A DNA stretch of 37,843 nucleotides. It comes from a virus. The position numbers and the translations under genes were made by a program. This document shows positions 1 to 37,843 of this stretch, piece after piece (within the stretch, counting starts at the first letter, position 1; each line of letters begins with the position of its first letter). The DNA lies in UHGV virus genome UHGV-1372824; one strand, given 5' to 3'. The notes under the pieces were generated by a model. It made no database searches. It saw only the letters and a program-made list of their open reading frames with translations, and had not been told where the DNA came from.

Positions 1-485
1 ACCTTGTACACGATGCAGACGGAGAACTGACAAGCTATCAAGAGGGCGGCATTTATGAGGATTTGGACAACATTTCGGAGAACATTGGAGCAATAGACAC
101 AAAGGTCAAAAGCTTTGATGCAAGGGAAACGGCTATTTATAACGCCATACAGGACAACAGCCTTATAGCAAGAAAAAATGCAAGGGTTGAGGAAAATTCT
201 ATAATAATTACCAACGATACAACCACAGAAGACATCGCAAATCTGCTGAATTATCTACAACTTAATGCTGATTCTATTATGATTTACGGCGACGGAGATT
301 CGATTGTAACAATAGCAAAGACTGAAGGTAATGCTGGTTATATGGAAATGGCAGGAACATCTTTGCTTATAGCACAGGAGTCAAGGCTTTCCACGATTAG
401 ATTGAGGTCAGCAGACAAAATTGGAAGCCTTGCCTTTGTTGCAAGTAGTGACGGTCATGTGTCGTTAAGGGAGGTGCTGGATTAA
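1..485 (+). CDS. tail fibre protein, 3' part (5' end lies outside window; reading frame open from base 3)
   Basis: No stop codon from the window edge to 485; the frame is continuous with the 3'-open fibre ORF starting at 37501 if the window is circularised. Confidence 0.5.
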   Translation, partial: LVHDADGELTSYQEGGIYEDLDNISENIGAIDTKVKSFDARETAIYNAIQDNSLIARKNARVEENSIIITNDTTTEDIANLLNYLQLNADSIMIYGDGDSIVTIAKTEGNAGYMEMAGTSLLIAQESRLSTIRLRSADKIGSLAFVASSDGHVSLREVLD

Positions 486-1951
486 TGTCAACAGTATATT
501 CGGGATATTCGAAAGGGTGGAAACCAGTTGGTTCAGACATCTACAAGAAATACAGGGCAAGGCTTGATTATAGTTTAGTATCGGAAACAGCTACCACAAT
601 AACCTACAGGGCGGTTCTTTATGTAAATATAAATTCGTCTGTTAATGCGTCATATTCAGGAACACTTAACATCAGCGGCACAACATACACTGGTTCATGT
701 AAAACGGTGTTCGGTGAAACCAATACGGTAACTTGCGTTAGTGCCAAGACGAAGACATTCAATAAAGGAGCAACGGCAACTACCGCCACAATAAAGGGTG
801 GTGTACGGTCATCAAATGGCTCATGGACAGGAGCAACAGTAACGGCATCAGCCACAGTAACAATTCCTGCTCTTGCACCTGCTACCATTACATTCAATGC
901 CAACGGTGGTTCGGGTTCGGTTTCGGCAATCAGCACTTATGTTGGAGTTGCTAACACTATTCCGTCTAACAGCCTTACACGCACAGGATACACATTCAAC
1001 GGTTGGAACACAGCAAGCGATGGAAGCGGCACGGCATATGCGACAGGCTCAACCATTACACCATCGGGCGATGTAACATTGTATGCCCAGTGGAAAACAA
1101 CCTTTGTAAAACCTGAAATTCAGAACCTTTTGGCGTTCAGAACTGCTAATGCAAGCGGTGGAGCATCACCAACAGTTACAAGCACAGGCACAACAGGATT
1201 CTGTAAGTTCCAGCTTGTCGGCGGTGCAAATTATACATTCACAAGTGCAACGGTTCAGTTTGGCACGGCTACGGCAAAATCAATGAAAAAAAGTGGTACC
1301 ACTGTATACGAATATTCAACAGTCGGTTCAATCGCTCAAGCGTCAGCGTATACGGTCAAGGTTACAGTCGTTGTTAAAGGAACAGACGGAGTATCAAGGA
1401 CATACACTGATTCGACATATATATCAAAGTCAGTTCCTGTATTCGATGTGGCGAGCAATGGTAACTGTTTTGCGTTTTTCGGACCTGCTATAGATGGTCA
1501 GACAGACCCAAAACTTTTAATCAATGGGGAACTATCATTTGGTACAGAAGCAGCTGTGGCGAAAGCGATAGCAAATCTCGGTTTAACTGGAGCAGAAACA
1601 AAAAAGCTATTGTGGACTAATGCAAGCCCGACAAGCACATTTGCGGCACAGACGGTGAGTTTGGCTTTAAGTGGGTATGATGCGGTTGAAATCGAATACT
1701 ATGCGTCTACAAGTAAAGCAGTTTTAGACGTAACCAAGAAAAAAATTGGTGCATCTTCTATGCTAACGGGTTACCTTAACCCTCAATCCACAAATGGATA
1801 TATCAATCTTCTTTCACGTTTGTTTGATGTGACTACAAGTGGAATTACATTTAAAGGGGGATTTGCCAAAAGAACGTCTGACTCTTCCACCACTTCGAAT
1901 AATAACAGTTACTGCGTACCATACAAAATTTACGGCATTAAGGGGGTGTAA
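485..1951 (+). CDS. tail fibre / receptor-binding protein with a Listeria-Bacteroides (Flg_new-type) repeat
   Basis: 488-aa ORF, T/S/G-rich; the segment TGYTFNGWNTASDGSGTAYATGSTITPSGDVTLYAQW matches the Listeria-Bacteroides repeat signature; start overlaps upstream stop (ATTAATG). Confidence 0.55.
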   Translation: MSTVYSGYSKGWKPVGSDIYKKYRARLDYSLVSETATTITYRAVLYVNINSSVNASYSGTLNISGTTYTGSCKTVFGETNTVTCVSAKTKTFNKGATATTATIKGGVRSSNGSWTGATVTASATVTIPALAPATITFNANGGSGSVSAISTYVGVANTIPSNSLTRTGYTFNGWNTASDGSGTAYATGSTITPSGDVTLYAQWKTTFVKPEIQNLLAFRTANASGGASPTVTSTGTTGFCKFQLVGGANYTFTSATVQFGTATAKSMKKSGTTVYEYSTVGSIAQASAYTVKVTVVVKGTDGVSRTYTDSTYISKSVPVFDVASNGNCFAFFGPAIDGQTDPKLLINGELSFGTEAAVAKAIANLGLTGAETKKLLWTNASPTSTFAAQTVSLALSGYDAVEIEYYASTSKAVLDVTKKKIGASSMLTGYLNPQSTNGYINLLSRLFDVTTSGITFKGGFAKRTSDSSTTSNNNSYCVPYKIYGIKGV

Positions 1952-1954
1952 ACA

Positions 1955-2194
1955 ATGTATAGTTTAAATTTAGATACAGATAACAGAATATTATCGGCTT
2001 GTGTATGCCTTGAGGGTTTTGAGTATACGAACATTGTGGATGCACTTCCTGAAGGTGATATATCAGATTACAGGTACGCTGACGGTGAATATGTTTATGA
2101 CCCTCTGCCAGAGCCAGAGCCACAGCCAGAAGAACCAACGGCAGACGATGTGATTGATGCACTTCTCGGGATAGGAGGTAGCGGCAATGAATAG
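1955..2194 (+). CDS. hypothetical small acidic protein (PEPEPQPEEP linker)
   Basis: 79-aa ORF packed between fibre and lysis genes. Confidence 0.35.
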   Translation: MYSLNLDTDNRILSACVCLEGFEYTNIVDALPEGDISDYRYADGEYVYDPLPEPEPQPEEPTADDVIDALLGIGGSGNE

Positions 2195-2612
2195 ATTACA
2201 ATCGGCAGAACAATTCAGAAAGGCATTGCAGATGTATGCTCAAACTCTCACAGATGAACAGGCAATGGAAATAGCAACGGTATATCCAGCCTATGAAGTG
2301 GGCAGAGCATACACAACAGACGAGATGTTTACATACGGCATTAACGATGTAGGAGACCCACAGCTTTACAGGGTGGTGCAAGACCATACATCGCAGGAAG
2401 ATTGGAAGCCTGACAGCACTCCTGCACTTTATACGGCAATCGGGTTGAATCCGCAGGGCTATCCGACATGGTCAAGACCGACAGGCTCGCACGATGCTTA
2501 CAACACAGGCGATATTGTGGACTATAACGGAACTCTGTATAAGTCTCTGATAGACGGTAATGTGTGGTCTCCTGAAGAGTACCCAGCGGGATGGGAAGAG
2601 GTGACAGTATGA
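2187..2612 (+). CDS. protein with C-terminal CBM5/12-like (chitin-binding type 3) carbohydrate-binding domain
   Basis: AGGAGG RBS; C-terminal TWSRPTGSHDAYNTGDIVDYNGTLYKSLIDGNVWSPEEYPAGWEEV fits the W..Y..GD.V.Y.G..Y......P....W pattern of CBM5/12. Confidence 0.5.
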   Translation: MNRLQSAEQFRKALQMYAQTLTDEQAMEIATVYPAYEVGRAYTTDEMFTYGINDVGDPQLYRVVQDHTSQEDWKPDSTPALYTAIGLNPQGYPTWSRPTGSHDAYNTGDIVDYNGTLYKSLIDGNVWSPEEYPAGWEEVTV

Positions 2613-2734
2613 AATTTAACGAAATGACAATCGAACAGCTGAAGGCATACAGGGCGAGCGTTGAAGCATACGGCACAGCAAGAGAACTGTATGAAGTGGA
2701 AATGAGAATAAAGGAACTTGAGGGCAATCACTAA
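2609..2734 (+). CDS. small hypothetical protein (41 aa)
   Basis: ATGA start/stop overlap with upstream gene; below the size cut-off of the ORF track. Confidence 0.3.
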   Translation: MKFNEMTIEQLKAYRASVEAYGTARELYEVEMRIKELEGNH

Positions 2735-2774
2735 AGATTGCCTTTTTTAGTGCAAAGAAAGGAAAGGTATCGTT

Positions 2775-3074
2775 ATGAAGAAATCGTTAGTTACAGCAAT
2801 AGTATCCGTGATTGTGTTCATTCTTCTTGTAATCAACACAATTTTCGACACAAACCTTGAAGTCCCTGCGGATATTCTAGAGTCGGTAGCGGTGCTTATC
2901 GCAACAGGAATAATGTGGTTCATATCACACTACTACAATCAGGACTATTCAGCCGTCGCAAAGAAGATTACCCCGATAATGAGAAAAGCAAAGAAGCTGG
3001 CAAAGAACGGAGATAACTCACTGCTTGACTCAATAGAAATACTCGTTAAAGAGTGGGGTGGCAAAGATGATTAA
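2775..3074 (+). CDS. holin (two predicted TM helices, charged C-terminus)
   Basis: 99 aa, hydrophobic segments at residues 6-24 and 36-54, lysine-rich tail, immediately upstream of endolysin. Confidence 0.6.
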   Translation: MKKSLVTAIVSVIVFILLVINTIFDTNLEVPADILESVAVLIATGIMWFISHYYNQDYSAVAKKITPIMRKAKKLAKNGDNSLLDSIEILVKEWGGKDD

Positions 3075-3864
3075 CGCAATATACATTCTACCAACCAAGA
3101 CTGCAAGCTGCCCTGTTTTTGGCGACAAGGCAATCGCAAAGAAAATGAATGTTCCGTGGGGCAAGCATAAAGTCGGAGACATTGTGCTCTTCGACTTTAA
3201 CGGCAACGGAACATCAGACCATGCAGGTATCGTCATTGGTGTTAGCGGCAATACAATCACAACGATTGAGGGCAACACAGGAATCGGCAACAACACGAAC
3301 GGCGGACAGGTCCAGAAGAGGACAAGAAGCAGGGATGTTGTCAATTATTTCGTCAGGCCAAAATACAACGAAGATGTAACTGCAGACATGGTAATAGCCA
3401 CTGCAAAGGCAGAAATCGGGTACAAGGAATCACCTAAAAACTCGAACAAGACAAAGTACGGCAAGTGGATAGGCGCAGACGGACAGCCCTGGTGCTGTTC
3501 TTTTGTTTGTTGGCTGTTTGCGCATCTGATTAATACAAAGGCGCCTGTTAATCAGCCGGTGAAGAGTGAAAACAAATCTCAGAATAACAACTATGTTATA
3601 GGAAAGACATACACTATCAAGGCGAAGTCAGGACTGTATGTACGGACAGGTGCAGGAACTAAATATGCAATTAAGAAAGTCAATGACATGACAGCAGACG
3701 GAAAAGCCCACTGCACAAGAAGGAGCTCATCTGATAACGCAGTCCTGAAAAAGGGCACACGAGTAACGGTGCTGGCGGTTAAGAAGTCCGGCAAAGAGAC
3801 TTGGATTCGCATTCCGTCGGGCTGGATCTGCGCAATACAGAACGGGGCAGTATATGTAAAGTGA
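3058..3864 (+). CDS. endolysin: CHAP/NlpC-P60-like cysteine peptidase or amidase plus C-terminal SH3b cell-wall-binding domain
   Basis: His-type motif GDIVLFDF..HAGIVIGV..TIEGNTG and Cys-type motif YGKWIGADGQPWCCSFVCW; C-terminal KTYTIKAKSGLYVRTGAGTKY...WIRIPSGWI resembles SH3b. Confidence 0.7.
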   Translation: MAKMINAIYILPTKTASCPVFGDKAIAKKMNVPWGKHKVGDIVLFDFNGNGTSDHAGIVIGVSGNTITTIEGNTGIGNNTNGGQVQKRTRSRDVVNYFVRPKYNEDVTADMVIATAKAEIGYKESPKNSNKTKYGKWIGADGQPWCCSFVCWLFAHLINTKAPVNQPVKSENKSQNNNYVIGKTYTIKAKSGLYVRTGAGTKYAIKKVNDMTADGKAHCTRRSSSDNAVLKKGTRVTVLAVKKSGKETWIRIPSGWICAIQNGAVYVK

Positions 3865-3875
3865 GGTAGGCAAGA

Positions 3876-4109
3876 ATGACAGATGCTTTAATTTCAGCAG
3901 GAGCGGCAATACTTGTATGCGTGATTTCGAACTATTTTCAGAACAAGAAAACGACTGCGCTTATGGAATACAAGATTGACCAGTTGACCAAGAAGGTAGA
4001 TTTACACAATAACGCCATAACACGCCTGTATGAGGTAGAGAGAAGGCTTGGAATTGATGAGGAAAAAATAAAGGTCGCCAATCATAGAATTAAAGACTTG
4101 GAGAAGTAA
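3876..4109 (+). CDS. small membrane protein with N-terminal TM helix and coiled-coil tail (lysis accessory or holin-like)
   Basis: 77 aa, hydrophobic N-terminus AGAAILVCVISNYF, then heptad-like charged region; last gene of the lysis cassette. Confidence 0.4.
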   Translation: MTDALISAGAAILVCVISNYFQNKKTTALMEYKIDQLTKKVDLHNNAITRLYEVERRLGIDEEKIKVANHRIKDLEK

Positions 4110-4145
4110 TTGTATTAGTAATTAAATAGTGTTATTTTCGTTTCC

Positions 4146-4180
4146 GGAGGGTAGCATTGCTACCCTCTTATTTTTATTTC
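4146..4180. terminator. bidirectional rho-independent terminator
   Basis: Perfect hairpin GAGGGTAGCA/TGCTACCCTC followed by TTATTTTTATTT on + and preceded by an A-rich run (a T-run for the convergent minus-strand gene). Confidence 0.6.
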
Positions 4181-4501
4181 TGCGCTATCCACATAATAAT
4201 AGAGCCGTGATATGAACTGCGAGTTTGTGGGCTTTCCGTGCATGTTCCGGAACAAAAGATTGATGGTCTTATTCCTGTCCTGTTGCCAGCAGAGAGCAAT
4301 GGCATTTCTGATACACCGTTCCACGGAGCAGGGTGTTGTATCATACATCTGCGCTATCTCGTCATATAGGCATTTTAGGTGCCCGCTGTAGTCGTCCCCA
4401 TTTTCAATGCAAATAAGCAAGGCGTTCTCGATGTATTTGAATCCGAGCAGATTCGTCGGCACATTCAAGTCGAATAATGTGTTTCTGATATTGTTTAACA
4501 T
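4160..4501 (-). CDS. stand-alone Spo0A C-terminal (effector/DNA-binding) domain protein
   Basis: TTPCSVERCIRNAIALCW and HGKPTNSQFISRL align with the Spo0A C-terminal motifs TTASRVERAIRHAIEVAW and KAKPTNSEFIA; GGAGGA RBS before the internal ATG at 4501; no receiver domain. Confidence 0.7.
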   Translation of the reverse strand: MLNNIRNTLFDLNVPTNLLGFKYIENALLICIENGDDYSGHLKCLYDEIAQMYDTTPCSVERCIRNAIALCWQQDRNKTINLLFRNMHGKPTNSQFISRLYYYVDSAEIKIRG

Positions 4502-4550
4502 AATTCCTCCTCTAACAAACCAATACCGTAATCTAATCATAAAGAATAGT

Positions 4551-4579
4551 TTGACAACTTAAAATATCGGGCGTAACAT
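4551..4579 (+). promoter_or_regulatory. sigma-A-like promoter (TTGACA-17 nt-TAACAT) for the XRE/S24 gene
   Basis: Read directly from the sequence. Confidence 0.4.
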
Positions 4580-4595
4580 TAAAATTGTAAAATTT

Positions 4596-4620
4596 TGTCG
4601 AATTTATGTCATTGATGACA
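4596..4620. promoter_or_regulatory. canonical Spo0A 0A box TGTCGAA followed by the 14-bp palindrome TGTCATTGATGACA
   Basis: Exact 7-mer at 4596..4602; palindrome at 4607..4620 directly upstream of the RBS of the 4632 gene. Confidence 0.35.
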
Positions 4621-4631
4621 AAGAGGTAATT

Positions 4632-5312
4632 ATGCTCGGCAAGAATATAAAAGCAATGATGCGCATGAGGGGCATCAACTGCAGGGAGCTGTCAGAGGCT
4701 TCTAATGTGCCCATAGAGACAGTGAGAAATATCTACTATGGGAAAGTTAAGGACCCCAAGATATCAACCGTGATAGCCTTTTCAAGGGCTCTTGGCTGTA
4801 CTGTCAATCACCTGATGGGCGATGAGGTGTTCACTTCTAAAGAGATTAACTTAATTGAGAACTACAGGAAGTGCGGAACGCACGGCAAGGCCATTATGTC
4901 GCTAATAGGAAGATATGAAGCAATGACGGCCAAGCACGACGGAGAAACGCCGCACATTGTCCCTTGTTTTGTGCCGGAGGGTGTAATGGTGGACGGCTTC
5001 GAATACAAGAGCAGTGAAGTCGTTGATGTTGAGACGGATATACCGGACGCATACACGGCCATCAAGGTTAACAGCAATAATTATATGCCGTCGTTTTGCA
5101 AAGGCGATATTATCCTTCTTGAGGACCGGTTCCCGGAGAACGGAGAGCGAGCTGTTTTCGTGATAAACGGCGTCGGGTACTTCCGACGATTCATTGAAAA
5201 AGACGGGCGAAACACTATGCGTTCAATCAGTCGTCACGGTGACGATATAGTCATAAAAAGAGCCGACGAGGTAAACTGCGTCGGCACTTATATCGGAGTA
5301 ATTAAGGCGTAA
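4632..5312 (+). CDS. XRE-family HTH regulator with C-terminal S24 (LexA/CI-like) peptidase-fold domain
   Basis: N-terminal HTH ELSEASNVPIETVRNIYYGK; C-terminal NYMPSFCKGDIILLE...VIKRADE has an S24-like fold but the nucleophile Ser position appears substituted. Confidence 0.65.
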   Translation: MLGKNIKAMMRMRGINCRELSEASNVPIETVRNIYYGKVKDPKISTVIAFSRALGCTVNHLMGDEVFTSKEINLIENYRKCGTHGKAIMSLIGRYEAMTAKHDGETPHIVPCFVPEGVMVDGFEYKSSEVVDVETDIPDAYTAIKVNSNNYMPSFCKGDIILLEDRFPENGERAVFVINGVGYFRRFIEKDGRNTMRSISRHGDDIVIKRADEVNCVGTYIGVIKA

Positions 5313-5579
5313 AAGGTAGCGCTTATTTTTTTTGGTAAGTAACGTATAAGTAACAAATTTACTACCAAAACCCTTTAAGAATGGGTATTTTTCAACGATT
5401 TCAGATATTATATCGGTAATTCGCAGATATACATAGAATAAACCAACCCGCAAATTAAAAACAGCTTAAAACCTTGATAAATGTGCATTTTTCAACGCTT
5501 TTAGCTGTTTTTTGTTTTGTCTAAAATGCTTAAAAAACACCATAAAATCTTATTAAAAAGTAACACGTAAGTAACAGAT
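5313..5579. other. candidate attP / integrase arm-site region (AT-rich, repeat-rich intergenic)
   Basis: 25-nt direct repeats AAGTAAC..TAAGTAACA.ATTTA at 5337..5361 and 5558..5582; ATTTTTCAACG.TTT.AG repeated at 5386..5406 and 5485..5507; lies next to the int 3' end. Confidence 0.4.
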
Positions 5580-6752
5580 TTATAGGGTATATTTGTCGAT
5601 TTCCGCAACCAAATCTTCAATCATTGCGTGAGTGTATGTGTCCTGTGTAAGGTCTTGGGCGGAGTGTCCGATAATCTTCTTAACAAGTATCGGATTCATT
5701 CTTGATGCGGCTGCGTATGTTGCGAATGAGTGTCGGCACTCGTGCGGTGTATGCCTCATGCTAAAAGCATCGCACATAGGCTCAAAGAACGATGTCAGGT
5801 ATCCGTTATAGTCAATCTTCTTATCCTTGTTGTTTCTAAAAATATACCCTGTACTATTTAATACAATCCGTCTTTTTATCAGCGGAATGATTTTTTTATG
5901 AACCGGCACGATACGACGTGCGGCGGCTGTCTTTGTTCCTCGCAGATCTAACCATCTTTCCTCAAGGTGTATGTCCTCTGCCTTGAGCTCCAGAAGCTCA
6001 CTGATACGCATTCCTGTATATAGCATAATGACAACCGAATCCATCAGAGCGACGCCGGAAACGGCGCTTTTTCGTTCTGACTTATGCACCCATTCAAGGT
6101 TATCCCACACAACCTGAACCTCTTCCCTTGTGAAAGGTTTCTTCTCTTTTGACTCTTTTTCAGAAGTGATCTCGACGAATTTCGAATAATCTTTTTCAAC
6201 GAAGTTGTTTTTATCGGCAATCTTGTAAATTGCGTGGAACAGTTTCAGCAGATTGTTTTGTGTTGATTTAGACTTATCTGCATATTCATTGACAACATTC
6301 TGCATATGAGTTGTTACTATCTCATGCATCCTCATGTTGTACAGGCTCCCGCACTTCTTGTATGCACCCTCATACGATGCCTTTGCACCCGGCTTCATCT
6401 TGTCAATCTTTTCTGCCTTAAAAATCTCATATACTTGCTGAAATGTGATTGCCCTTTTGTCAAGGTCGTAAGGGTTCTTGTTGTACTCTGCAAGCGCTAT
6501 TTGAGCATCAGCCTGTTTCTCGTAATATCCGATAGCCACTTGATTCTGTTTTCCCTTCGGCTGCCTTGCAATGTATTCGTTATATGCAGTCTCTACCTGT
6601 TGGAACAGCTCCTCTGTCAGAGCCTCTTTCAGGAACGATATATCCCGCTTTTTCACACGCATCTCGTATCCGGTTGTGACGACTACCGCAAAAGGTCGCC
6701 TGCGATTGCCGGACAGCTTCTTGATTGTTCCATATCCGTTAGGATTTTTCAT
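5580..6752 (-). CDS. int: tyrosine site-specific recombinase (phage integrase)
   Basis: 390 aa; C-terminal catalytic region HTPHECRHSFATYAA...IIGHS...TYTH with conserved R..H..R..Y pattern. Confidence 0.9.
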   Translation of the reverse strand: MKNPNGYGTIKKLSGNRRRPFAVVVTTGYEMRVKKRDISFLKEALTEELFQQVETAYNEYIARQPKGKQNQVAIGYYEKQADAQIALAEYNKNPYDLDKRAITFQQVYEIFKAEKIDKMKPGAKASYEGAYKKCGSLYNMRMHEIVTTHMQNVVNEYADKSKSTQNNLLKLFHAIYKIADKNNFVEKDYSKFVEITSEKESKEKKPFTREEVQVVWDNLEWVHKSERKSAVSGVALMDSVVIMLYTGMRISELLELKAEDIHLEERWLDLRGTKTAAARRIVPVHKKIIPLIKRRIVLNSTGYIFRNNKDKKIDYNGYLTSFFEPMCDAFSMRHTPHECRHSFATYAAASRMNPILVKKIIGHSAQDLTQDTYTHAMIEDLVAEIDKYTL

Positions 6753-6766
6753 GCTGAATCACTCCT

Positions 6767-6793
6767 AAAAATAAAGGCGGGACATGCCCGCCT
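6767..6793 (-). terminator. rho-independent terminator of the lipoprotein gene
   Basis: GGCGGG-ACATG-CCCGCC hairpin; on the minus strand it is followed by TTTATTTTT. Confidence 0.5.
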
Positions 6794-6798
6794 GTTTA

Positions 6799-7221
6799 TT
6801 ACATCGCTGAATCCATATAGGCATCAGTTATTTGACCGGCATACTCTTCATATACGTCGTAAAGTTTTCCTGCCCATTCTTCGTATACTTCTTGTTCGTC
6901 TCCGTTTTCTAACATAAGCTCTGCCATTTTTTCTGTGCCCTCTGTTTCGATTTTAGCGAGCTCCTCAATCTTGCTGTTTGACAGCTCCGCAAGTGCGTTT
7001 ATATCGCCTGACAGTTCAGCGGCTTCCTCGTTATATTCATCAATGAGCCCTGGTGTTGCTTCTTCAATCTTCTGGGTATATTCTTCAAGGATGCTTTCGT
7101 ATGTTGCCGGTTCCGTTGCCGGTTCTGAGGATTCTCCGGAATCTCCGCCTGATCCGCAAGCCGTAAACGCAAAAACCATAGCCATCATAACCAACACTGA
7201 TATAATCTTCTTCATTTTCAT
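6799..7221 (-). CDS. secreted acidic lipoprotein (moron / lysogenic-conversion or superinfection-exclusion candidate)
   Basis: Signal peptide MKMKKIISVLVMMAMVFAFTAC with lipobox FTAC; very E/D-rich mature protein; strong RBS AGGAGGGAA; sits between int and cI. Confidence 0.6.
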   Translation of the reverse strand: MKMKKIISVLVMMAMVFAFTACGSGGDSGESSEPATEPATYESILEEYTQKIEEATPGLIDEYNEEAAELSGDINALAELSNSKIEELAKIETEGTEKMAELMLENGDEQEVYEEWAGKLYDVYEEYAGQITDAYMDSAM

Positions 7222-7481
7222 TCCCTCCTAAAATACATAGATAACTTATTCACCGTGCGGAGAGGGTGGAGGGCGTTCGTGCTTTTTATGTCCCATATCG
7301 TTTTCCTTTATTGTCGTAAATCTTCCTGCATTTTCCGTTGTGTCTGAATATTACAGACTTGTATAATATTTTCAGAAAGATATTTCAGTTGTGAAAGGAT
7401 GAAGTGCAATGACTAAAAACGAATACTTAGAATCAATCAACGAGCTTCTTTCCCAGGTTGAGAAAGAGAGCACTCTTGAAT

Positions 7482-13492: not shown

Positions 13493-13679
13493 GGTTTATG
13501 TAATAGGCACGGAGCCTGTGCCGTACTGGTGCAGGCGACTGATAACGCCGTACAGGAGGTTGGACGGCGGCACAGGTTACGAATTCCACGGCAAAAGAAC
13601 CGACTTTAATCTTCAAGCCGGCGATGAGCTTGAATGGAACGGCTACGAAATCCACGTGAGGAGTTATGCACATGATTGA
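13485..13679 (+). CDS. hypothetical protein
   Basis: ATG 13485 after AAAGGAGCGGAG. Confidence 0.35.
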   Translation: MVEVYVIGTEPVPYWCRRLITPYRRLDGGTGYEFHGKRTDFNLQAGDELEWNGYEIHVRSYAHD

Positions 13680-14157
13680 TGTCCAGAAATATCTATACAG
13701 ATTGCGAGACATAAACGAGCTGATTATGGGCGTTGCAGATGAGATAGAGCTGTGGAAGGTTATCGCAATGAAGACCACCGCCCAGGTTCAGACGGTCAAC
13801 ATCGGCGGAGAGCTTCACGCAGTTGAAAAGGTCCAATCTTCCGGGAGCGGTGATTCTATGGCGGAAGCTGTCTGCAAGTATGTGGATCTTGAAGCAGAAC
13901 TCGGCGCAGAAACGGCGGCACTCATAGAAGAGCGGCAGAGCATCATTGCCACAATAAAGAAGCTCCCGGCGAGAGAGTACCGGCTGATAAGGCTCATGTA
14001 TGTTGGTACTGTAGCTCGTAGTGGAGAAATCGTATATATGAGCTTGAAACAGGCGGCGGCAGATATGGGGATATCGAGACGGACGGCAACAGGAATACAC
14101 GGGAGCGCCCTTGACAGGCTCAGGAAGATTTTGAAGGAGGATAACAGTGGATATTAA
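13672..14157 (+). CDS. ArpU-family / sigma-70 region-4-like late transcriptional regulator
   Basis: C-terminal LPAREYRLIRLMYVG...MSLKQAAADMGISRRTATGIHGSALDRLRK resembles sigma region 4 / ArpU. Confidence 0.55.
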   Translation: MIDVQKYLYRLRDINELIMGVADEIELWKVIAMKTTAQVQTVNIGGELHAVEKVQSSGSGDSMAEAVCKYVDLEAELGAETAALIEERQSIIATIKKLPAREYRLIRLMYVGTVARSGEIVYMSLKQAAADMGISRRTATGIHGSALDRLRKILKEDNSGY

Positions 14158-18115: not shown

Positions 18116-18122
18116 TAAAGAG

Positions 18123-18153
18123 GGGCAGGCGAATAAGCCTGCTCTTTTATTTT
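18123..18153 (+). terminator. rho-independent terminator
   Basis: GCAGGC-GAATAA-GCCTGC followed by TCTTTTATTTT. Confidence 0.55.
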
Positions 18154-18248
18154 GCTCATAATTGCGCACATTTGCGCACTATTTCCCACCACTTCCTGCA
18201 CATAAAGCTATATGATGTAATCGGAAAGTCCATCGTTTTTATACAGAG

Positions 18249-18280
18249 CGTCCCACGGTTTATCCGTGGGGCGTTTTTTA
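18249..18280 (+). terminator. rho-independent terminator
   Basis: CGTCCCACGG-TTTAT-CCGTGGGGCG followed by TTTTTT. Confidence 0.6.
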
Positions 18281-18306
18281 ATACAAAACTGAAAAGAGTT
18301 GATATT

Positions 18307-18429
18307 GTGGGATTCAATTACAAGCAGCAGTACGCAGTAGTGGTAATGTGCAAAGACGAATCAGAGCAGGAAGCTGTATATAACCGACTGAAAGCGGAGG
18401 GCTTCAAGCTCAAGGTGGTGGCTGTATGA
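18307..18429 (+). CDS. small protein (about 40 aa, GTG start), first gene of the ABC-GNAT cassette
   Basis: In-frame GTG after the terminator; its TGA stop overlaps the ATG of the next gene. The 18016 ORF in the track runs through two terminators, so only this 3' part is plausible. Confidence 0.3.
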   Translation: MGFNYKQQYAVVVMCKDESEQEAVYNRLKAEGFKLKVVAV

Positions 18430-19565
18430 TTGAGATTCACAATAGAGTAAGTGACTTTGACTCGTACAGAGCCGCAAGAGTGAAAAGCCTGTTCAATGCG
18501 GAGAGCGGATGTAACTTTGATTTAAGGATTGAAGGTGTGGACCTTTCCGGAGAATGGAGCATTGGTGTTGTTGTCGGTCCCTCCGGATCTGGAAAGACTT
18601 CAATCGGCAAGATGATATTTGGAGACAACAAGATTGCGAGCCTGTCAGATGGATGGCACACAGACAGACCTATCGTTGATGACATTGCACCAAGCAGAGA
18701 TTTCAACATCGTAACAGGGATGCTTGCATCGGTGGGGCTTGGTGATGTTCCGGCGTGGCTCCGTCCGTTTCATGTGCTATCAAACGGGGAGCAGTTCCGG
18801 GCGGGGCTTGCAAGACTTATATGCGAAGCTCCGGAGGAAGTTGTAATTGACGAATTCACATCAGTAGTTGACAGGCAGATTGCAAGAATAGGAGCGGGAG
18901 CGTTCCAGAAAGCGTGGCGGCGGGAGAACCCGACAGGCAGGGCCGTGCTGTTAACTCCGCACTATGATGTTGTGGACTGGTTACAGCCCGATTGGATTAT
19001 AGACACAAAGAACAAAACATTTGAACGGGGGAATCCCCGGCGCAGGCCACCGATTGAACTTGAAATACGGAAGGTCGACGGAAGTTACTGGCGATATTTT
19101 GAGCCGCATTATTATTTGAAACTGCCAAGACCTATTGCAGCAGAATATTTCATTGGAACAGTAGACGGAGAGCTTGCATGTCATATGGCTGTATGTCCGT
19201 GGTTCCATCTTAACGGATACCGGGCAACAAGACTTGTGACAATGCCGGAATGGCAGGGCGCAGGAGTAGGAACAAGGTTCCTTAATGCTGTGGCAGAGTA
19301 TCACCTTGAAGGGAACGGAAGAAGAAACAGAAAACTTCCGACATTCTTCCACACTTCGCATCCGCAGCTATGCGATGCACTGAGGAGAAGCCATAAATGG
19401 GTTCAAGTATCAGCGAAGCTATACGGAGACAATAAGACACGAAGCAATAAATCACTAACGAAATCAGCAAAGAAGAAAGGGTTCAAGGAAATTGGAAGCG
19501 GCTATGGCGGCCATTTCCGTGCCGTACAGGGCTTCAAATACATTGGAGAGGGTGTAATGCCTTGA
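18426..19565 (+). CDS. fusion protein: ABC-type ATPase domain (N-terminal) plus GNAT-like acetyltransferase domain (C-terminal)
   Basis: Walker A GPSGSGKTS; ABC signature LSNGEQFRAGLARL; Walker B EVVIDEFTSVVD; H-loop LLTPHYD; C-terminal RLVTMPEWQGAGVGTRFLNAV fits GNAT motif A. Confidence 0.6.
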   Translation: MIEIHNRVSDFDSYRAARVKSLFNAESGCNFDLRIEGVDLSGEWSIGVVVGPSGSGKTSIGKMIFGDNKIASLSDGWHTDRPIVDDIAPSRDFNIVTGMLASVGLGDVPAWLRPFHVLSNGEQFRAGLARLICEAPEEVVIDEFTSVVDRQIARIGAGAFQKAWRRENPTGRAVLLTPHYDVVDWLQPDWIIDTKNKTFERGNPRRRPPIELEIRKVDGSYWRYFEPHYYLKLPRPIAAEYFIGTVDGELACHMAVCPWFHLNGYRATRLVTMPEWQGAGVGTRFLNAVAEYHLEGNGRRNRKLPTFFHTSHPQLCDALRRSHKWVQVSAKLYGDNKTRSNKSLTKSAKKKGFKEIGSGYGGHFRAVQGFKYIGEGVMP

Positions 19566-19780
19566 AGCAAATAAAAACCGTTATACGGCCAATTAGCGGC
19601 GCCACACAGTTTGATAGTGCTGTGAACAGACTGCTCCAGGAAGGTTGGGAGCTTAAGACCAGGAAAACAATTAACGCACACGGAGATATATCGGAGGCAT
19701 TCAATATCCCTGTGTGTCAGATTTTATATGCAGAACTTGAAAAGGAATGCACAGAGAAGTTTGAGGAAGTGACATTGTAA
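19562..19780 (+). CDS. hypothetical protein (72 aa), third gene of the cassette
   Basis: TTG start after GGAGAGGGTG; overlaps the upstream stop. Confidence 0.4.
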   Translation: MKQIKTVIRPISGATQFDSAVNRLLQEGWELKTRKTINAHGDISEAFNIPVCQILYAELEKECTEKFEEVTL

Positions 19781-19793
19781 GGAGGGAATACAG

Positions 19794-20105
19794 ATGGCTA
19801 TGCCGGGCGGAAATCCGAAAAACTTAATAGTGCCAACCTCGGAACAAGCTCGGATAAATGGAGCAAAGGGTGGACGAGCCTCAGCGAACAAAAAGAAGCT
19901 GCTCAAGTCGTTCCGGGAGCTTGATGTTGAGAACACGAGCAACGAAGAGCGGATGAAGATGCTCGCAAAGGTTAAGCAGATGGCGGAGCGTGGAAACCTC
20001 AATGCAATCAAACTGTATCTTGAGATTATAGGCGAGTATGAAATCAACATAAACGCAACTGCGGATATGGAACTGAACATCAAGATAGATTACGGGGATG
20101 AGTAA
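19794..20105 (+). CDS. terminase small subunit (candidate)
   Basis: 103 aa, helical, N-terminal GNPKNLIVPTSEQARINGAKGG; immediately upstream of TerL with overlapping stop/start. Confidence 0.45.
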   Translation: MAMPGGNPKNLIVPTSEQARINGAKGGRASANKKKLLKSFRELDVENTSNEERMKMLAKVKQMAERGNLNAIKLYLEIIGEYEININATADMELNIKIDYGDE

Positions 20106-21349
20106 TGAACATAAATGTGCAAATGAATCCCTGCTTTAAGGAAGTTGACAGGAGCGCCAAAAGGTACATCGCTCTTAAAGGCTCTGCGGGCTCCGGTAAG
20201 AGCGTTGACACAGCGCAAAACTACATCCTGCGGCTGATGCAGGACAAGGGCAGAAACCTTGTGGCAATGCGCAAGTCTGATATCACGAACAGAGACAGCA
20301 CTTTTGCAGAGCTGACGGGTGCGCTGTATCGCATGTTCGGAGACAAGACGGACCTCTACTGGAAGATTAACAAGAGCCCGCTTCAGATTACATTCAAGCC
20401 GAATGGCAATCAGATAATATTCAGAGGAATGAACGACGACAAGCAACGAGAGAAGCTGAAGTCAATCACATTCCCGAAAGGCAAGCTGACAGATGTGTGG
20501 CTTGAGGAGGCAACGGAGTTCACGCAATCAGATCTGGAAATCATAGACGACCGTTTAAGGGGCGAGCTTCCCGACGGACTGTTCTATCAAATAAGGATGA
20601 CCTTCAATCCGGTTAGCAAAACGCACTGGATAAAGAAGGTCTTTTTTGATTTTGCAGATGAGAATGTGCTGACACATCACAGCACATATCAGATGAACCG
20701 CTTCATTGACGAAGCATACAGGCAGAGGATGGAGCGACGCAGACTTGTAGACCCGGACGGTTACAGGATATACGGACTCGGGGAGTGGGGAGAAGTCGGC
20801 GGGCTGATTCTGTCTAACTACATCATTGAGGAATTCGACACATCACCGGAGCGGTTTGATTATATGGTCAATGCTCAGGACTTCGGATTCAATCACGCAA
20901 ACTGCATCGGAGAGGTTGGATTCAAGGACGGCGAGCTGTACCTTTGTCAGGAGCTGTATGTGTATGAGAAGGACACAGACGAGATTATTCAGATGGCAGA
21001 GGGAAGGTTCAGAAAGAACATCACAATGTGGTGCGATTCCGCAGAGCCCGACAGAATCCGAATGTGGAAGAAAGCAGGATATAGGGCACTTCCGGTAAAG
21101 AAAGAGCCCAACAGTGTCCGGGCGCAGATTGACCACTTAAAACAACACAGGATTCACATTCACCCCTCCTGCGTTAATACCATTAAGGAAATTCAGCAAT
21201 GGAAGTGGAAAAAAGATGAAAAGACAAACACATACACGGACGAGCCTGTGAACTTCTTCGATGATGCAATGGCAATGCTGAGATATTCCATTGAAGAAGA
21301 ACGCCGCACGTCACCAAGATTAAACAGAAAAATAAAAGGAGGCATTTAA
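20105..21349 (+). CDS. terL: terminase large subunit
   Basis: Walker A ALKGSAGSGKS, ATPase plus C-terminal nuclease fold; position and size. Confidence 0.9.
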   Translation: MNINVQMNPCFKEVDRSAKRYIALKGSAGSGKSVDTAQNYILRLMQDKGRNLVAMRKSDITNRDSTFAELTGALYRMFGDKTDLYWKINKSPLQITFKPNGNQIIFRGMNDDKQREKLKSITFPKGKLTDVWLEEATEFTQSDLEIIDDRLRGELPDGLFYQIRMTFNPVSKTHWIKKVFFDFADENVLTHHSTYQMNRFIDEAYRQRMERRRLVDPDGYRIYGLGEWGEVGGLILSNYIIEEFDTSPERFDYMVNAQDFGFNHANCIGEVGFKDGELYLCQELYVYEKDTDEIIQMAEGRFRKNITMWCDSAEPDRIRMWKKAGYRALPVKKEPNSVRAQIDHLKQHRIHIHPSCVNTIKEIQQWKWKKDEKTNTYTDEPVNFFDDAMAMLRYSIEEERRTSPRLNRKIKGGI

Positions 21350-34897: not shown

Positions 34898-35587
34898 ATG
34901 GCAATTAAGGCAGTGGATCAGATAACCATCGTCGATGTGACCGACGCTTATTCGGTCATCTTAACAAGTGAAGCGTACACCTTTGTAGGGAATACATCGG
35001 GAGCTCCGTCGGGGCTCTCGTGCTCTACACAGGCAGTAGCGTTCTGCGGTTCAAATCAATGCTCCGTGGTGAATGTTACGGCATCGGACATTGAATGTCC
35101 GTCGGGTATTTCCGCAACAGTCACAAACAGCGGCACATCATCACCTACAATCACATTCAGGACCACGGCAACAATAACGGATGCCTGCGAGGCAACTATT
35201 CCTGTTGTGGTAGACGGAATCACGGTGAATAAGAAGTTCTCTTTTGCAGTAGCAAAGAAGGGAGCGACCGGGACGGCTGGCACCAACGGAACAAACGGCA
35301 CAAACGGAAAGGACGGAGCCGCCGGAGCTGATGCAATATCAATGGCAATATCAAGCTCAAACGGAACCGTATTCAAGAACAATTCCGGCTCGACAGTGTT
35401 AACAGCTCACGTATACAAGGGCGGTGTTGAGCAGTCAATCACGGATGCCGGAGTGTGCGGCACGCTTGGTAGCGTCAAATGGTACAAGGGAGGGGATGCC
35501 ACGGCAATAGCAACGGCAAAATCAGTAACAGTAAATGCGGCTGATGTTGCAAGCGCAGTAGCGTACACTTGTAAGCTGGAGCAGTAA
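34898..35587 (+). CDS. tail fibre component with collagen-like GATGTAGTNGTNGTNGKDGAAGADA and Ig-like domain
   Basis: Gly-X-Y run; domain paralogous to the C-terminus of the preceding gene. Confidence 0.5.
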   Translation: MAIKAVDQITIVDVTDAYSVILTSEAYTFVGNTSGAPSGLSCSTQAVAFCGSNQCSVVNVTASDIECPSGISATVTNSGTSSPTITFRTTATITDACEATIPVVVDGITVNKKFSFAVAKKGATGTAGTNGTNGTNGKDGAAGADAISMAISSSNGTVFKNNSGSTVLTAHVYKGGVEQSITDAGVCGTLGSVKWYKGGDATAIATAKSVTVNAADVASAVAYTCKLEQ

Positions 35588-37479
35588 TGACTGTAAGGGC
35601 AAGCGCCACGGTCACGGTCTCGAAATACCGGGATATAACATCGACCGTGCGGTACTACAAATTGCAGACCTCGACATTGTCCGCTCCCGCAAAGCCCACA
35701 ACAAACCCTCCGAGCGGGTGGAGCGATTCAGAGCCGGCATATTCGAGCGGCACATATACGTTATACTTCTGCGACCTCTCTGTTTTTTCGGATGGCACCT
35801 GGAGTTATTCGGCGGTCAGCAAGTCAAGCAGCTATGAAGCGGCAAAGGAAGCCTACAACAAGGCGGTTGAAGCGGCAAAGGTTGCAACAAACTTTATGCT
35901 TCTGACCGATGAGGACGGACTTGTCATCGGTAACATAACGGCGAATGTTCTCCGGGGCAACATACAACTAAAAGCAGAGACAAGCGGAGCATCAATATCA
36001 CTTCGAGACGGCACGAACATTCTCGCAAGGTTCTCGGCAACAAATAAGTCGTTCACCGGCATTACATCGGCTGTGACTTCAACCTCGAGTGATTCAAGCT
36101 CAGAACAGGGGGAGGCGGGAAGCTCAAGCGGAACAATTACAGGTGCATCGCAGACAGTCACAAGCGGGCAGTCAAAAGACATCGTGAAGATTGAGAGCCT
36201 TAACCCTGTTTACTTTCCGCAAGGAATTACAACAGACGGGGTTATTGTCAACGACGACAGCTTGATATCCAATGTGGATTTCACTCTGAACGGCAGAATC
36301 TTTGATAAGAACGGCAGATCTGCATTCGAACCGTACACAGGAGACGGGAACCTGTCAATCGGATATGGGCGTTTCAAGGCCGCCACGGCAAGCAGTACGG
36401 ACTGGAGCATTCTTTATGGGAATAAGGTCAAGCTCGCCACAAAAAACGGTGTATGGCTCACTCAGGACGGCTCAGTGGCATTTGAGACATACAATTCCAA
36501 CGGCAACATGTCGATGGGCTACCACCTTTACAAGAAGGGCACCGGAGACTTGAATCTGTACGGCGGGGCTGACATCAATCTGCGAGCCAAAACGACATCC
36601 ATTATAGACTCCACGGGAAGCTCCTGCTTCGAAGCTAAAAACGCTAACGGTAACACGGTTATCGGGTATGCCCGGTACTCCAAAGGCGGCAATACTAATA
36701 TTTATGGAGGAACCGAAATAAATTTAGTAACCAATAGCGGAAATGTTGTTGCTAATTGTTCGATAATACCAGAGACAAATTCGTCGATGGCATTAGGCAA
36801 GTACAACGAGCTCGGATGGTCGAACATCTATATCGGAAATGCCAGCGGGGTGTATAACGGGCTTCGTGTTATTGTAGACGGCTCAAGTAAGAACCTATGC
36901 GGTAGAGACGGAGACGGACACGTTATCTTCGGAAATATTGACGGTGTAATGCATTACCAGGCTAAGAATGTTAACGCCTCAAACACCGGTAATGCGTTCA
37001 GAATCACTTCCGGGAATAACGACGCAAAGAACAACACAACTTCTATATGGCTATTCGGTGCGGCTGACTCCACATCCCGATATATCGGCTCTTATATGGC
37101 ATACGACCGCACATATTCCTCTGCGGCAAATATGGTGGTTACTGGAAACGGAGTATTCGGGCGCAGTACATCATCATCTGAGCGATACAAAACCGATATA
37201 GAACTTGCCGACATCGGAGAGCTGAAAGGTCTTTACAGTCTGCCTGTCAAGCGGTTCAAGTATCGCAAAGACTACATTGCAGAGGATGACGAGCTGTACA
37301 ACACGGATATATACGGCTTTATCGTGGAAGACCTGGAGGAAGTGCTACCGTGTGCGGTACAGCATATAGAATCTGACGACGGCACGAAACTGCCCGAGAT
37401 GTGGAACAGTAACATCATCGTGCCGGCACTATTAAGTCTTATTCAAGACCTGAACAACAGAGTAAGCGTTCTTGAATGA
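35587..37479 (+). CDS. tail fibre / receptor-binding protein with C-terminal S74-type intramolecular chaperone (self-cleaving) domain
   Basis: Three tandem ~45-aa repeats (FE.Y..NGN.S.GY.RYKKG...N.YGG..INL); C-terminal SERYKTDIELADIGELKGLYSLPVKRFKY...IVPALLSLIQDLNNRVSVLE resembles endosialidase/L-shaped fibre chaperone domains. Confidence 0.6.
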   Translation: MTVRASATVTVSKYRDITSTVRYYKLQTSTLSAPAKPTTNPPSGWSDSEPAYSSGTYTLYFCDLSVFSDGTWSYSAVSKSSSYEAAKEAYNKAVEAAKVATNFMLLTDEDGLVIGNITANVLRGNIQLKAETSGASISLRDGTNILARFSATNKSFTGITSAVTSTSSDSSSEQGEAGSSSGTITGASQTVTSGQSKDIVKIESLNPVYFPQGITTDGVIVNDDSLISNVDFTLNGRIFDKNGRSAFEPYTGDGNLSIGYGRFKAATASSTDWSILYGNKVKLATKNGVWLTQDGSVAFETYNSNGNMSMGYHLYKKGTGDLNLYGGADINLRAKTTSIIDSTGSSCFEAKNANGNTVIGYARYSKGGNTNIYGGTEINLVTNSGNVVANCSIIPETNSSMALGKYNELGWSNIYIGNASGVYNGLRVIVDGSSKNLCGRDGDGHVIFGNIDGVMHYQAKNVNASNTGNAFRITSGNNDAKNNTTSIWLFGAADSTSRYIGSYMAYDRTYSSAANMVVTGNGVFGRSTSSSERYKTDIELADIGELKGLYSLPVKRFKYRKDYIAEDDELYNTDIYGFIVEDLEEVLPCAVQHIESDDGTKLPEMWNSNIIVPALLSLIQDLNNRVSVLE

Positions 37480-37500
37480 GCATGAGAAAGGAAACTGATA

Positions 37501-37843
37501 ATGACAATTAAAGCACAGGCATTGACTACCCTTGTAATTAACAAGGATGGCGAGGCAGGTCCGCAAGGCGAACCTGGAGCTGACGGCTATTCCCCGACAG
37601 TAACCACAGGCACATCATCAGACGGAAGCACTACGGTAACTGTTACAAACAAGGACGGTTCAACGACAACCGTACTTGTAGACGGAACAGCGAGAACTGG
37701 CGTTGATTCACTTAATGACACTGTATTCGGAGTACAGACTTTTGAGTATATCCTTGACGGTGTAACCATCCCTGCCCACAAAAGGGAAGACGGCACTTAT
37801 TACTACATCCTCAACGATGAGGAAGTTACGGTTGCAGAAGCTG
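37501..37843 (+). CDS. tail fibre protein, 5' part (open at window end), collagen-like GEAGPQGEPGADG
   Basis: ATG 37501; no stop before the window end. Confidence 0.5.
   Translation, partial: MTIKAQALTTLVINKDGEAGPQGEPGADGYSPTVTTGTSSDGSTTVTVTNKDGSTTTVLVDGTARTGVDSLNDTVFGVQTFEYILDGVTIPAHKREDGTYYYILNDEEVTVAEA

Follow-up and report, generated by a model that had tools for sequence, protein, structure and literature searches.

An ABC ATPase-GNAT fusion protein encoded beside a detached ParB tail at the packaging-gene boundary of a temperate gut phage, a predicted DNA-modifying enzyme

What might a protein that joins an ABC-type ATPase to a GNAT acetyltransferase do for the phage that encodes it? 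The question is raised by virus genome UHGV-1372824, a stretch of 37,843 nucleotides that was analyzed whole and is called the window here, in which three overlapping open reading frames (ORFs) at positions 18307-19780 of the plus strand encode a 40-amino-acid (aa) mini-protein, a 379-aa protein containing both domains (hereafter ABC-GNAT), and a 72-aa protein. An original prediction, made from the letters of the DNA, had described these genes as a cassette of unfamiliar architecture and had offered roles that included host takeover, toxicity, and nucleic-acid acetylation linked to packaging. The coordinates of the cassette, both of its gene overlaps, the two terminators upstream and the terminase downstream are all as described there, and of the roles offered, the last is the one that context best supports. 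We give about even chances to the reading, drawn from sequence comparison and gene neighborhood, that ABC-GNAT is a late ATP-dependent acyl-coenzyme A (acyl-CoA) transferase acting on replicated phage DNA, either ahead of packaging or in the course of it, so that the DNA would be shielded from host nucleases.

The ABC-GNAT ORF spans positions 18426-19565 on the plus strand. Residues 1-201 (18426-19028) form an ABC-type nucleotide-binding domain with the superfamily's fold and its motifs in canonical order: Walker A GPSGSGKTS (residues 51-59; 18576-18602), the ABC signature LSNGEQFR (residues 118-125, with the LSNGE part at 18777-18791), Walker B VVIDEFTS (residues 139-146; 18840-18854 including the catalytic Glu) followed by the D-loop SVVD, and the H-loop TPH (residues 177-179, with His179 at 18960-18962). 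Residues 212-379 (19059-19565) form a GNAT-fold acyl-CoA transferase domain with the alpha/beta fold of that superfamily and a motif A-like segment, RLVTMPEWQGAGVGTRFLNAV (residues 269-289), in which the loop QGAGVG (19254-19271) follows the Q/R-x-x-G-x-G/A pattern of CoA pyrophosphate binding. The Pfam model ABC_tran passes its gathering threshold on the 379-aa protein (29.8 bits vs 25), and a search of the PDB with the ABC-GNAT family profile matched ABC ATPases at 2.6e-8. Pfam GNAT models scored 19.6 and 17.5 bits on the 379-aa protein, under gathering, and scored over gathering in other family members. Both domains are thus as the original prediction had assigned them.

Conservation of the motifs was checked in 54 homologues with 54-94% identity and in 68 homologues fused to a ParB domain. 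The motif residues are invariant across all of the 54. Invariant in both sets are the three glycines and the serine of Walker A, the Leu-Ser and Gly of the signature, the Asp-Glu of Walker B, the D-loop, the H-loop His, and residues Q277, G278, G280 and G282 of the GNAT loop, with Walker A K57 and signature N120 and E122 conserved in at least 90% of the ParB-fused homologues. The GNAT segments FHTSHP (residues 308-313) and GGHFRAVQGF (361-370) are largely invariant, and a helix near the N terminus (R15-N24) is conserved as well. Because the motif residues are conserved, both catalytic centers look functional. The original prediction had named three findings that would overturn it: a C-terminal half that is not a GNAT domain, an ORF created by frameshift or fusion, and an N-terminal half that is a divergent terminase. 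None was found. A frameshift or fusion artifact is ruled out by the recurrence of the one-ORF architecture in thousands of clusters, and a divergent terminase is ruled out as well, since no terminase family matches the 379-aa protein and a separate large subunit lies at 20105-21349; nor does the protein have the terminase arrangement of an ATPase followed by a C-terminal RNase H-like nuclease.

The original prediction did not recognize this architecture, which has in fact been cataloged and would not surprise a specialist. PHROG 11143, listed as of unknown function, matches the 379-aa protein at 3e-146 over residues 2-375, and Joint Genome Institute (JGI) annotation of family members reads "ABC-type ATPase with predicted acetyltransferase domain". 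The pairing of a GNAT with an ABC ATPase was described as a predicted acyl modification, itself uncharacterized, of a base in DNA, with Tenacibaculum phage pT24 QAX98348.1 as the example (Iyer et al., Viruses 2021; PMC7824862); that article cites Iyer, Zhang, Burroughs & Aravind (NAR 2013; doi 10.1093/nar/gkt573) for the prediction. The window protein is homologous to the pT24 protein over both domains (E 9e-30 and 2.5e-40). On the basis of its sequence, we conclude that the 379-aa protein belongs to the ABC superfamily, the GNAT superfamily and the phage ABC-GNAT family represented by PHROG 11143.

A word-indexed search retrieved at least 7,951 ABC-GNAT clusters at 90% identity, and an exhaustive search of 50%-identity representatives retrieved 475 clusters at E<=1e-30 and 2,820 at E<=1e-3. 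Using tblastn, ABC-GNAT was found in 61 deposited phage records, with coverage of at least 80% in 38 of them. These include phages of Porphyromonas, Burkholderia (phiE255 gp29), Pseudomonas, Gordonia (gene 2), Lactococcus (P335), Oenococcus, Leptospira (LE3 and LE4), Arthrobacter and Nonlabens, prophages of Streptococcus pyogenes, and the jumbo phages Tenacibaculum pT24 and Aeromonas PX29. Phages of lactic acid bacteria alone split ABC-GNAT into two ORFs. In Streptococcus and Lactococcus phages (loci L005, 3959-4992, and L091, 2980-4034), the ABC and GNAT halves lie in different frames or ORFs and were returned as two tblastn pieces; they could be truly split subunits or the product of a programmed frameshift. 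One family member of 715 aa (P0349) carries an intein, consisting of a Hint domain and a LAGLIDADG homing endonuclease, within its ATPase domain, and another (P0372) carries a PTM/DIR17-like Tudor domain.

The 40-aa ORF immediately upstream of ABC-GNAT (18307-18429, plus strand) has a GTG start and an ATGA overlap with the start of ABC-GNAT, its product is predicted to fold as beta-alpha-beta, and PHROG 28816 matches it at 7e-17. Gene neighbors were surveyed in 80 IMG/VR loci whose encoded relatives show 52-81% identity, by extracting the ORFs that abut the enzyme; 82 loci were counted in total. An upstream ORF in the homology cluster of the window's 40-aa ORF was present in 75 of the 82: 32 of these homologues are proteins of 170-260 aa with a Pfam ParB_N domain, 40 are stand-alone mini-ORFs of 40-80 aa like that of the window, and three are truncated at contig edges. 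BLAST aligns the last ~38 residues of the ParB_N proteins to the 40-aa ORF without gaps, and residues 165-201 of Gordonia Axumite gp1 are 68% identical to it. Burkholderia phage phiE255 gp28 and a Porphyromonas phage protein labeled "acr candidate" are the same mini-protein. In at least 65 distinct clusters, ParB_N, the mini-domain, ABC and GNAT are fused in a single polypeptide. An AlphaFold2 model of one such natural fusion (predicted local distance difference test score, pLDDT, 85.9) contains the helix of the mini-domain, and its flanking segments make no sheet in the monomer, which is compatible with the mini-domain as a dimerization element. As judged by these alignments, the 40-aa ORF is a conserved partner of the enzyme, namely the C-terminal mini-domain of a ParB-like protein minus its N-domain, and its product is probably a small assembly or dimerization subunit.

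The original prediction had treated the cassette as a three-gene unit and proposed asking whether both small genes accompany the enzyme elsewhere. The upstream gene does, at the frequency given above, but the downstream gene does not. The 72-aa ORF (19562-19780, plus strand), which has a TTG start and a TTGA overlap with the ABC-GNAT stop, is conserved solely in a close clade of gut phages (69% identity with the ORF at locus L086 and 43% with that at L006), and its only match in the phage database is MT835521. It has no Pfam, NCBIfam or PADLOC match, and its PHROG match is weak. It fills the slot that in most relatives is held by a protein of 157-247 aa with a Formyl_trans_N domain, present downstream of the enzyme in 62 of the 72 loci that have a downstream ORF. 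That the 72-aa ORF is a remnant of this gene is ruled out by its failure to match a custom hidden Markov model (HMM) built from 61 neighboring formyltransferases, and the same model detected no formyltransferase anywhere in the window. The N-terminal half of the 72-aa protein (19562-19660) has the same strand-helix-strand pattern as the 40-aa mini-protein (18322-18417), with 31% identity over 32 aa, a value that is not statistically meaningful; this small fold could be present twice.

The best PDB match of the partner formyltransferase is the N-domain of 10-formyltetrahydrofolate dehydrogenase (1e-25), followed by the methionyl-tRNA formyltransferase Fmt (4.5e-15 to 5e-21) and sugar formyltransferases. 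The 10-formyltetrahydrofolate dehydrogenase N-domain passes a formyl group to a phosphopantetheine thiol. By analogy, given this similarity, the partner might make formyl-CoA as an acyl donor for the GNAT domain, or else it might formylate an aminoacyl adduct. Other genes occupy similar positions: an ASCH-domain protein adjoins ABC-GNAT in streptococcal phages, and on soil phage contigs (loci L098 and L099, 6919-8486) a ParB-ABC-GNAT fusion has Amidoligase_2 and a class-II glutamine amidotransferase downstream of it where a formyltransferase would otherwise stand, which suggests an alternative downstream chemistry on the same adduct. Enzymes that make or decorate amide bonds thus recur near ABC-GNAT, and the formyltransferase, ASCH and Amidoligase_2 neighbors would be accessory enzymes that elaborate the adduct. 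Judged by gene content, the window phage carries a reduced form of the system, with no ParB N-domain, no formyltransferase and the 72-aa protein in the vacant slot. It shares with the ABC-GNAT of Iyer et al. the same two-domain architecture in a phage-encoded protein. Whereas pT24 is a jumbo phage, the window phage is a small temperate gut siphovirus, and in it the ParB partner of the PHROG 11143 system has shrunk to a mini-protein.

The position of the gene points to phage DNA. According to the ORF map and Pfam matches, the cassette stands where the early genes of a temperate siphovirus give way to the late ones, with early and middle genes 5' and packaging genes 3'. ABC-GNAT is likewise directly 5' of the terminase genes in other temperate siphoviruses, including gut relatives and phages of Gordonia, Streptococcus, Lactococcus (P335) and Leptospira. 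A five-seed BLAST search placed a terminase 3' of ABC-GNAT in 10 of 50 IMG/VR loci with enough flank, a count that is a lower bound since terminases are diverse and many loci stop at contig or prophage ends. In Mu-like phages (phiE255 and Komp_PAO1_1), ABC-GNAT closes the block of tail genes, after the tail-fiber genes, at the site that mom has in Mu. In virulent phages it is found between primase and helicase, or beside DNA polymerase and deoxyguanosine kinase. The GC content of the cassette, 0.47-0.51, is that of the late region, and a compositional island or moron is thereby ruled out. Because the cassette lies in the late operon, an early host-takeover effector is disfavored; a host-takeover or anti-defense effector had been listed first among the candidate roles in the original prediction.

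If ABC-GNAT is a DNA acyltransferase, it could act as follows. ABC domains work as ATP-sandwich dimers, and two ABC domains of the enzyme would dimerize around ATP, the dimer clamping or remodeling nucleic acid and so giving a base amine access to the GNAT active site. The enzyme would engage replicated phage DNA, onto which it would be loaded by the ParB N-domain where that domain exists, and would move an acyl group, probably acetyl, from CoA to the base. In most phages, the formyltransferase or amidoligase would then elaborate the adduct or supply the donor. Written before packaging, the mark would protect the injected genome. A more specific form of this proposal, which we put forward tentatively and hold to be possible but not probable, is that the family carries out a post-replicative N-acylation of a new class on the canonical bases of DNA (for example N-acetyl or N-formyl on A, C or G). 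The ABC dimer would then clamp DNA in an ATP-gated manner, the 40-aa ParB-tail peptide would be a minimal assembly or activation subunit, and the reduced version in the window would write a simpler mark, probably acetyl.

Two known systems come close to this proposal. Mom of phage Mu is a GNAT-superfamily enzyme that makes N6-carbamoylmethyl-adenine in DNA. Mom and ABC-GNAT are both GNAT-fold phage enzymes and both are proposed to serve as anti-restriction DNA modifications, but Mom has neither an ATPase domain nor a ParB partner, and the likeness is one of fold and position, not of sequence comparison. The second is a phage ParB-like protein that was found by experiment to activate its cognate post-replicative DNA-modifying enzyme, and to do so specifically on double-stranded DNA (PMC13229309; PNAS 2026). 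In that system, the thymine dioxygenase 5mYOX is encoded beside a ParB-like activator with an N-terminal nucleotide-binding domain and a C-terminal domain, both of which are required, and the two genes are often near terminase genes. The window resembles it in having a predicted phage DNA modifier encoded next to a ParB-derived mini-protein and near the terminase. It differs in that 5mYOX is an Fe/2-oxoglutarate dioxygenase, unrelated to ABC-GNAT, and in that the window retains the C-terminal ParB mini-domain only.

Several observations weigh against DNA modification. A literature search found no experimental work on ABC-GNAT, COG2401 or N4-acetyl-deoxycytidine in phage, and because no experiment on any family member was found, context is the sole basis on which we infer DNA as the target. 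Among nucleotide-binding domains, those of the transporter and ABC-F types (FtsE, CcmA, EttA) are the ones that the ABC domain resembles, not those of the DNA-binding SMC, Rad50 and MutS clades. A custom HMM built from 32 neighboring ParB proteins matched the mini-ORF only and detected no ParB N-domain elsewhere in the window; because this domain is the strongest link to DNA, its absence from the window weakens the proposal. A scan for sigma-70-type promoters between the terminators and the mini-ORF also found none, and late expression of the cassette is for that reason deduced only from its position. Finally, the nearest structural neighbors of the GNAT domain are RimI, Naa50 and an IAA acetyltransferase, which act on proteins or small molecules, and no known nucleic-acid-modifying GNAT is among them.

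A rival reading is that the enzyme acetylates protein. ABC-GNAT could modify the terminase, its ParB-like partner, the capsid, or a host defense or transcription protein, with the ATPase serving as a switch or chaperone. We consider protein acetylation improbable.

An RNA substrate, which we regard as unlikely, would make ABC-GNAT an RNA or tRNA acyltransferase in the manner of TmcA and NAT10, acting on a tRNA or rRNA base or on aminoacyl-tRNA, with the formyltransferase acting on the same aminoacyl or amine substrate. TmcA and NAT10 are ATP-dependent RNA cytidine N4-acetyltransferases built from DUF1726, a RecD-like helicase ATPase, GNAT_acetyltr_2 and a tRNA-binding domain. They share with ABC-GNAT the logic of an NTPase and a GNAT in one polypeptide, maybe including ATP-driven presentation of a base to the acetyl-CoA site. 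The ABC domain weakly matches ABC-F proteins associated with the ribosome or tRNA (EttA and ribosomal-protection proteins), the formyltransferase partner matches methionyl-tRNA formyltransferase, and streptococcal phages supply the ASCH neighbor; ASCH domains and Fmt-like formyltransferases would fit RNA or aminoacyl-tRNA as the substrate equally well, a further point against DNA. Nevertheless, the Pfam model for the TmcA-type GNAT, GNAT_acetyltr_2, matched only at E 0.12 (12.1 bits vs a cutoff of 24.6), and Pfam gave no helicase, DUF1726 or tRNA_bind_2 match. The 379-aa protein has neither a tRNA-binding domain nor a helicase-type ATPase, its nucleotide-binding domain being of the ABC class where that of TmcA is RecD-like. 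The formyltransferase partner lacks the C-terminal tRNA-binding domain of Fmt and is closest to the 10-formyltetrahydrofolate dehydrogenase N-domain, and ParB-like partners are DNA-associated modules in the cases studied (PMC13229309). The resemblance to TmcA and NAT10 noted in the original prediction therefore stands as a functional analogy, as which it was offered, and does not extend to kinship. By analogy, ABC-GNAT may resemble TmcA or Mom in bringing together a nucleic-acid base and an acyl-CoA site.

A free nucleotide or metabolite acylated before replication, or a host antiphage compound that the enzyme detoxifies, is a very unlikely substrate. Many GNATs use small amines, the structural matches of the domain include diamine, glyphosate and aminoglycoside acetyltransferases, and deoxyguanosine kinase adjoins ABC-GNAT in Enterococcus phage 9184. 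A soluble small substrate, however, needs neither an ABC ATPase clamp nor a ParB adaptor, and in the temperate phage of the window the cassette is unaccompanied by polymerase or deoxynucleoside triphosphate (dNTP)-pathway genes. Least credible is the toxin-like module of the original prediction (or an abortive-infection or superinfection-exclusion module with the small ORFs as antitoxins). In its favor, GNAT toxins such as TacT and AtaT exist, small ORFs overlap the enzyme on both sides, and the mini-ORF bears the label "acr candidate" in a Porphyromonas phage record. Against it, the GNAT here is fused to an ABC domain, whereas TacT/AtaT/ItaT systems pair a free-standing GNAT toxin with a neighboring antitoxin that binds DNA; the 40-aa ORF is a ParB mini-domain with no antitoxin fold, and many phages have it fused to the enzyme; PADLOC made no toxin-antitoxin or defense assignment beyond matching the ABC domain generically to mad3, and its HicA-like match was not significant (E 0.02); and the gene lies in the late operon, outside the lysogeny or moron region.

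If ABC-GNAT does modify DNA, an enzyme for writing acyl marks on it is carried by phages in their thousands, and such a mark would be a new DNA modification chemistry with a bearing on phage resistance to restriction and other defenses, on sequencing artifacts and on enzyme tools. The carriers include abundant human gut phages, prophages of Streptococcus pyogenes and lactococci, and Mu-like phages of Burkholderia and Pseudomonas, and the cultured phages among those listed above can be used for testing the prediction. The 40-aa mini-protein and the 379-aa enzyme constitute a defined minimal system, in which the small ORF is identified as a ParB tail and not as an antitoxin or anti-CRISPR. Three elements may be additions to what was found in print: the small ORF as a detached ParB tail, the frequent formyltransferase partner, and a minimal form that lacks both the ParB N-domain and the formyltransferase.

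Two intrinsic terminators precede the cassette on the plus strand. The first (18119-18153), a 12-bp stem followed by a U-run, closes the early/middle gene block; its hairpin (18119-18148) has a predicted energy of -19.9 kcal/mol (z -4.5). The second (18245-18283), a 14-bp stem followed by U6, ends ~25 nucleotides 5' of the mini-ORF start, and its hairpin (18245-18277) has -24.0 kcal/mol (z -6.4). Neither value was equaled in any of 200 shuffles. Between the terminators lies a tandem direct repeat of 9-10 nucleotides, ATTGCGCAC / TTTGCGCAC (18161-18179, plus strand), whose two exact copies are the sole ones within the window and which may be a regulator or late-promoter element. By analogy with lambda PR'-tR', the tandem TTGCGCAC repeat with terminator 2 directly 3' of it resembles a late promoter or operator that leads into a terminator under antitermination control.

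Downstream of the cassette, and outside the module, a 103-aa ORF (19794-20105, plus strand) stands directly 5' of the terminase large subunit gene (20105-21349, plus strand; Pfam Terminase_3 2.4e-50 and Terminase_3C 1.8e-10), which marks the packaging genes. The 103-aa ORF has no significant family match and is dissimilar to the Terminase_2 protein of relatives; by position it is a candidate small terminase subunit. In relatives whose ABC-GNAT is ~81% identical, this region is filled by a Terminase_2 small subunit; evidently the occupant of the small-terminase slot has been exchanged between phages that are otherwise similar.

The genes 5' of the cassette include those for a Gp157-like protein, a G39P-like helicase loader and a 163-aa protein (13666-14157) with a match to sigma-70 region 4 at 3.5e-6. 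The latter is a candidate late-gene activator with a RinA/ArpU-like role, and could drive the operon headed by the ABC-GNAT cassette. No closely related annotated phage was found at the DNA level. Tail genes at the 3' end of the window (35587-37843) are followed in gene order, within positions 1-7300, by a Listeria-Bacteroides repeat protein (485-1951), a CHAP/SH3 endolysin (3058-3864), an S24/HTH repressor (4632-5312) and a tyrosine integrase on the minus strand (5580-6752); the window has the look of an almost complete temperate phage genome, circularly permuted.

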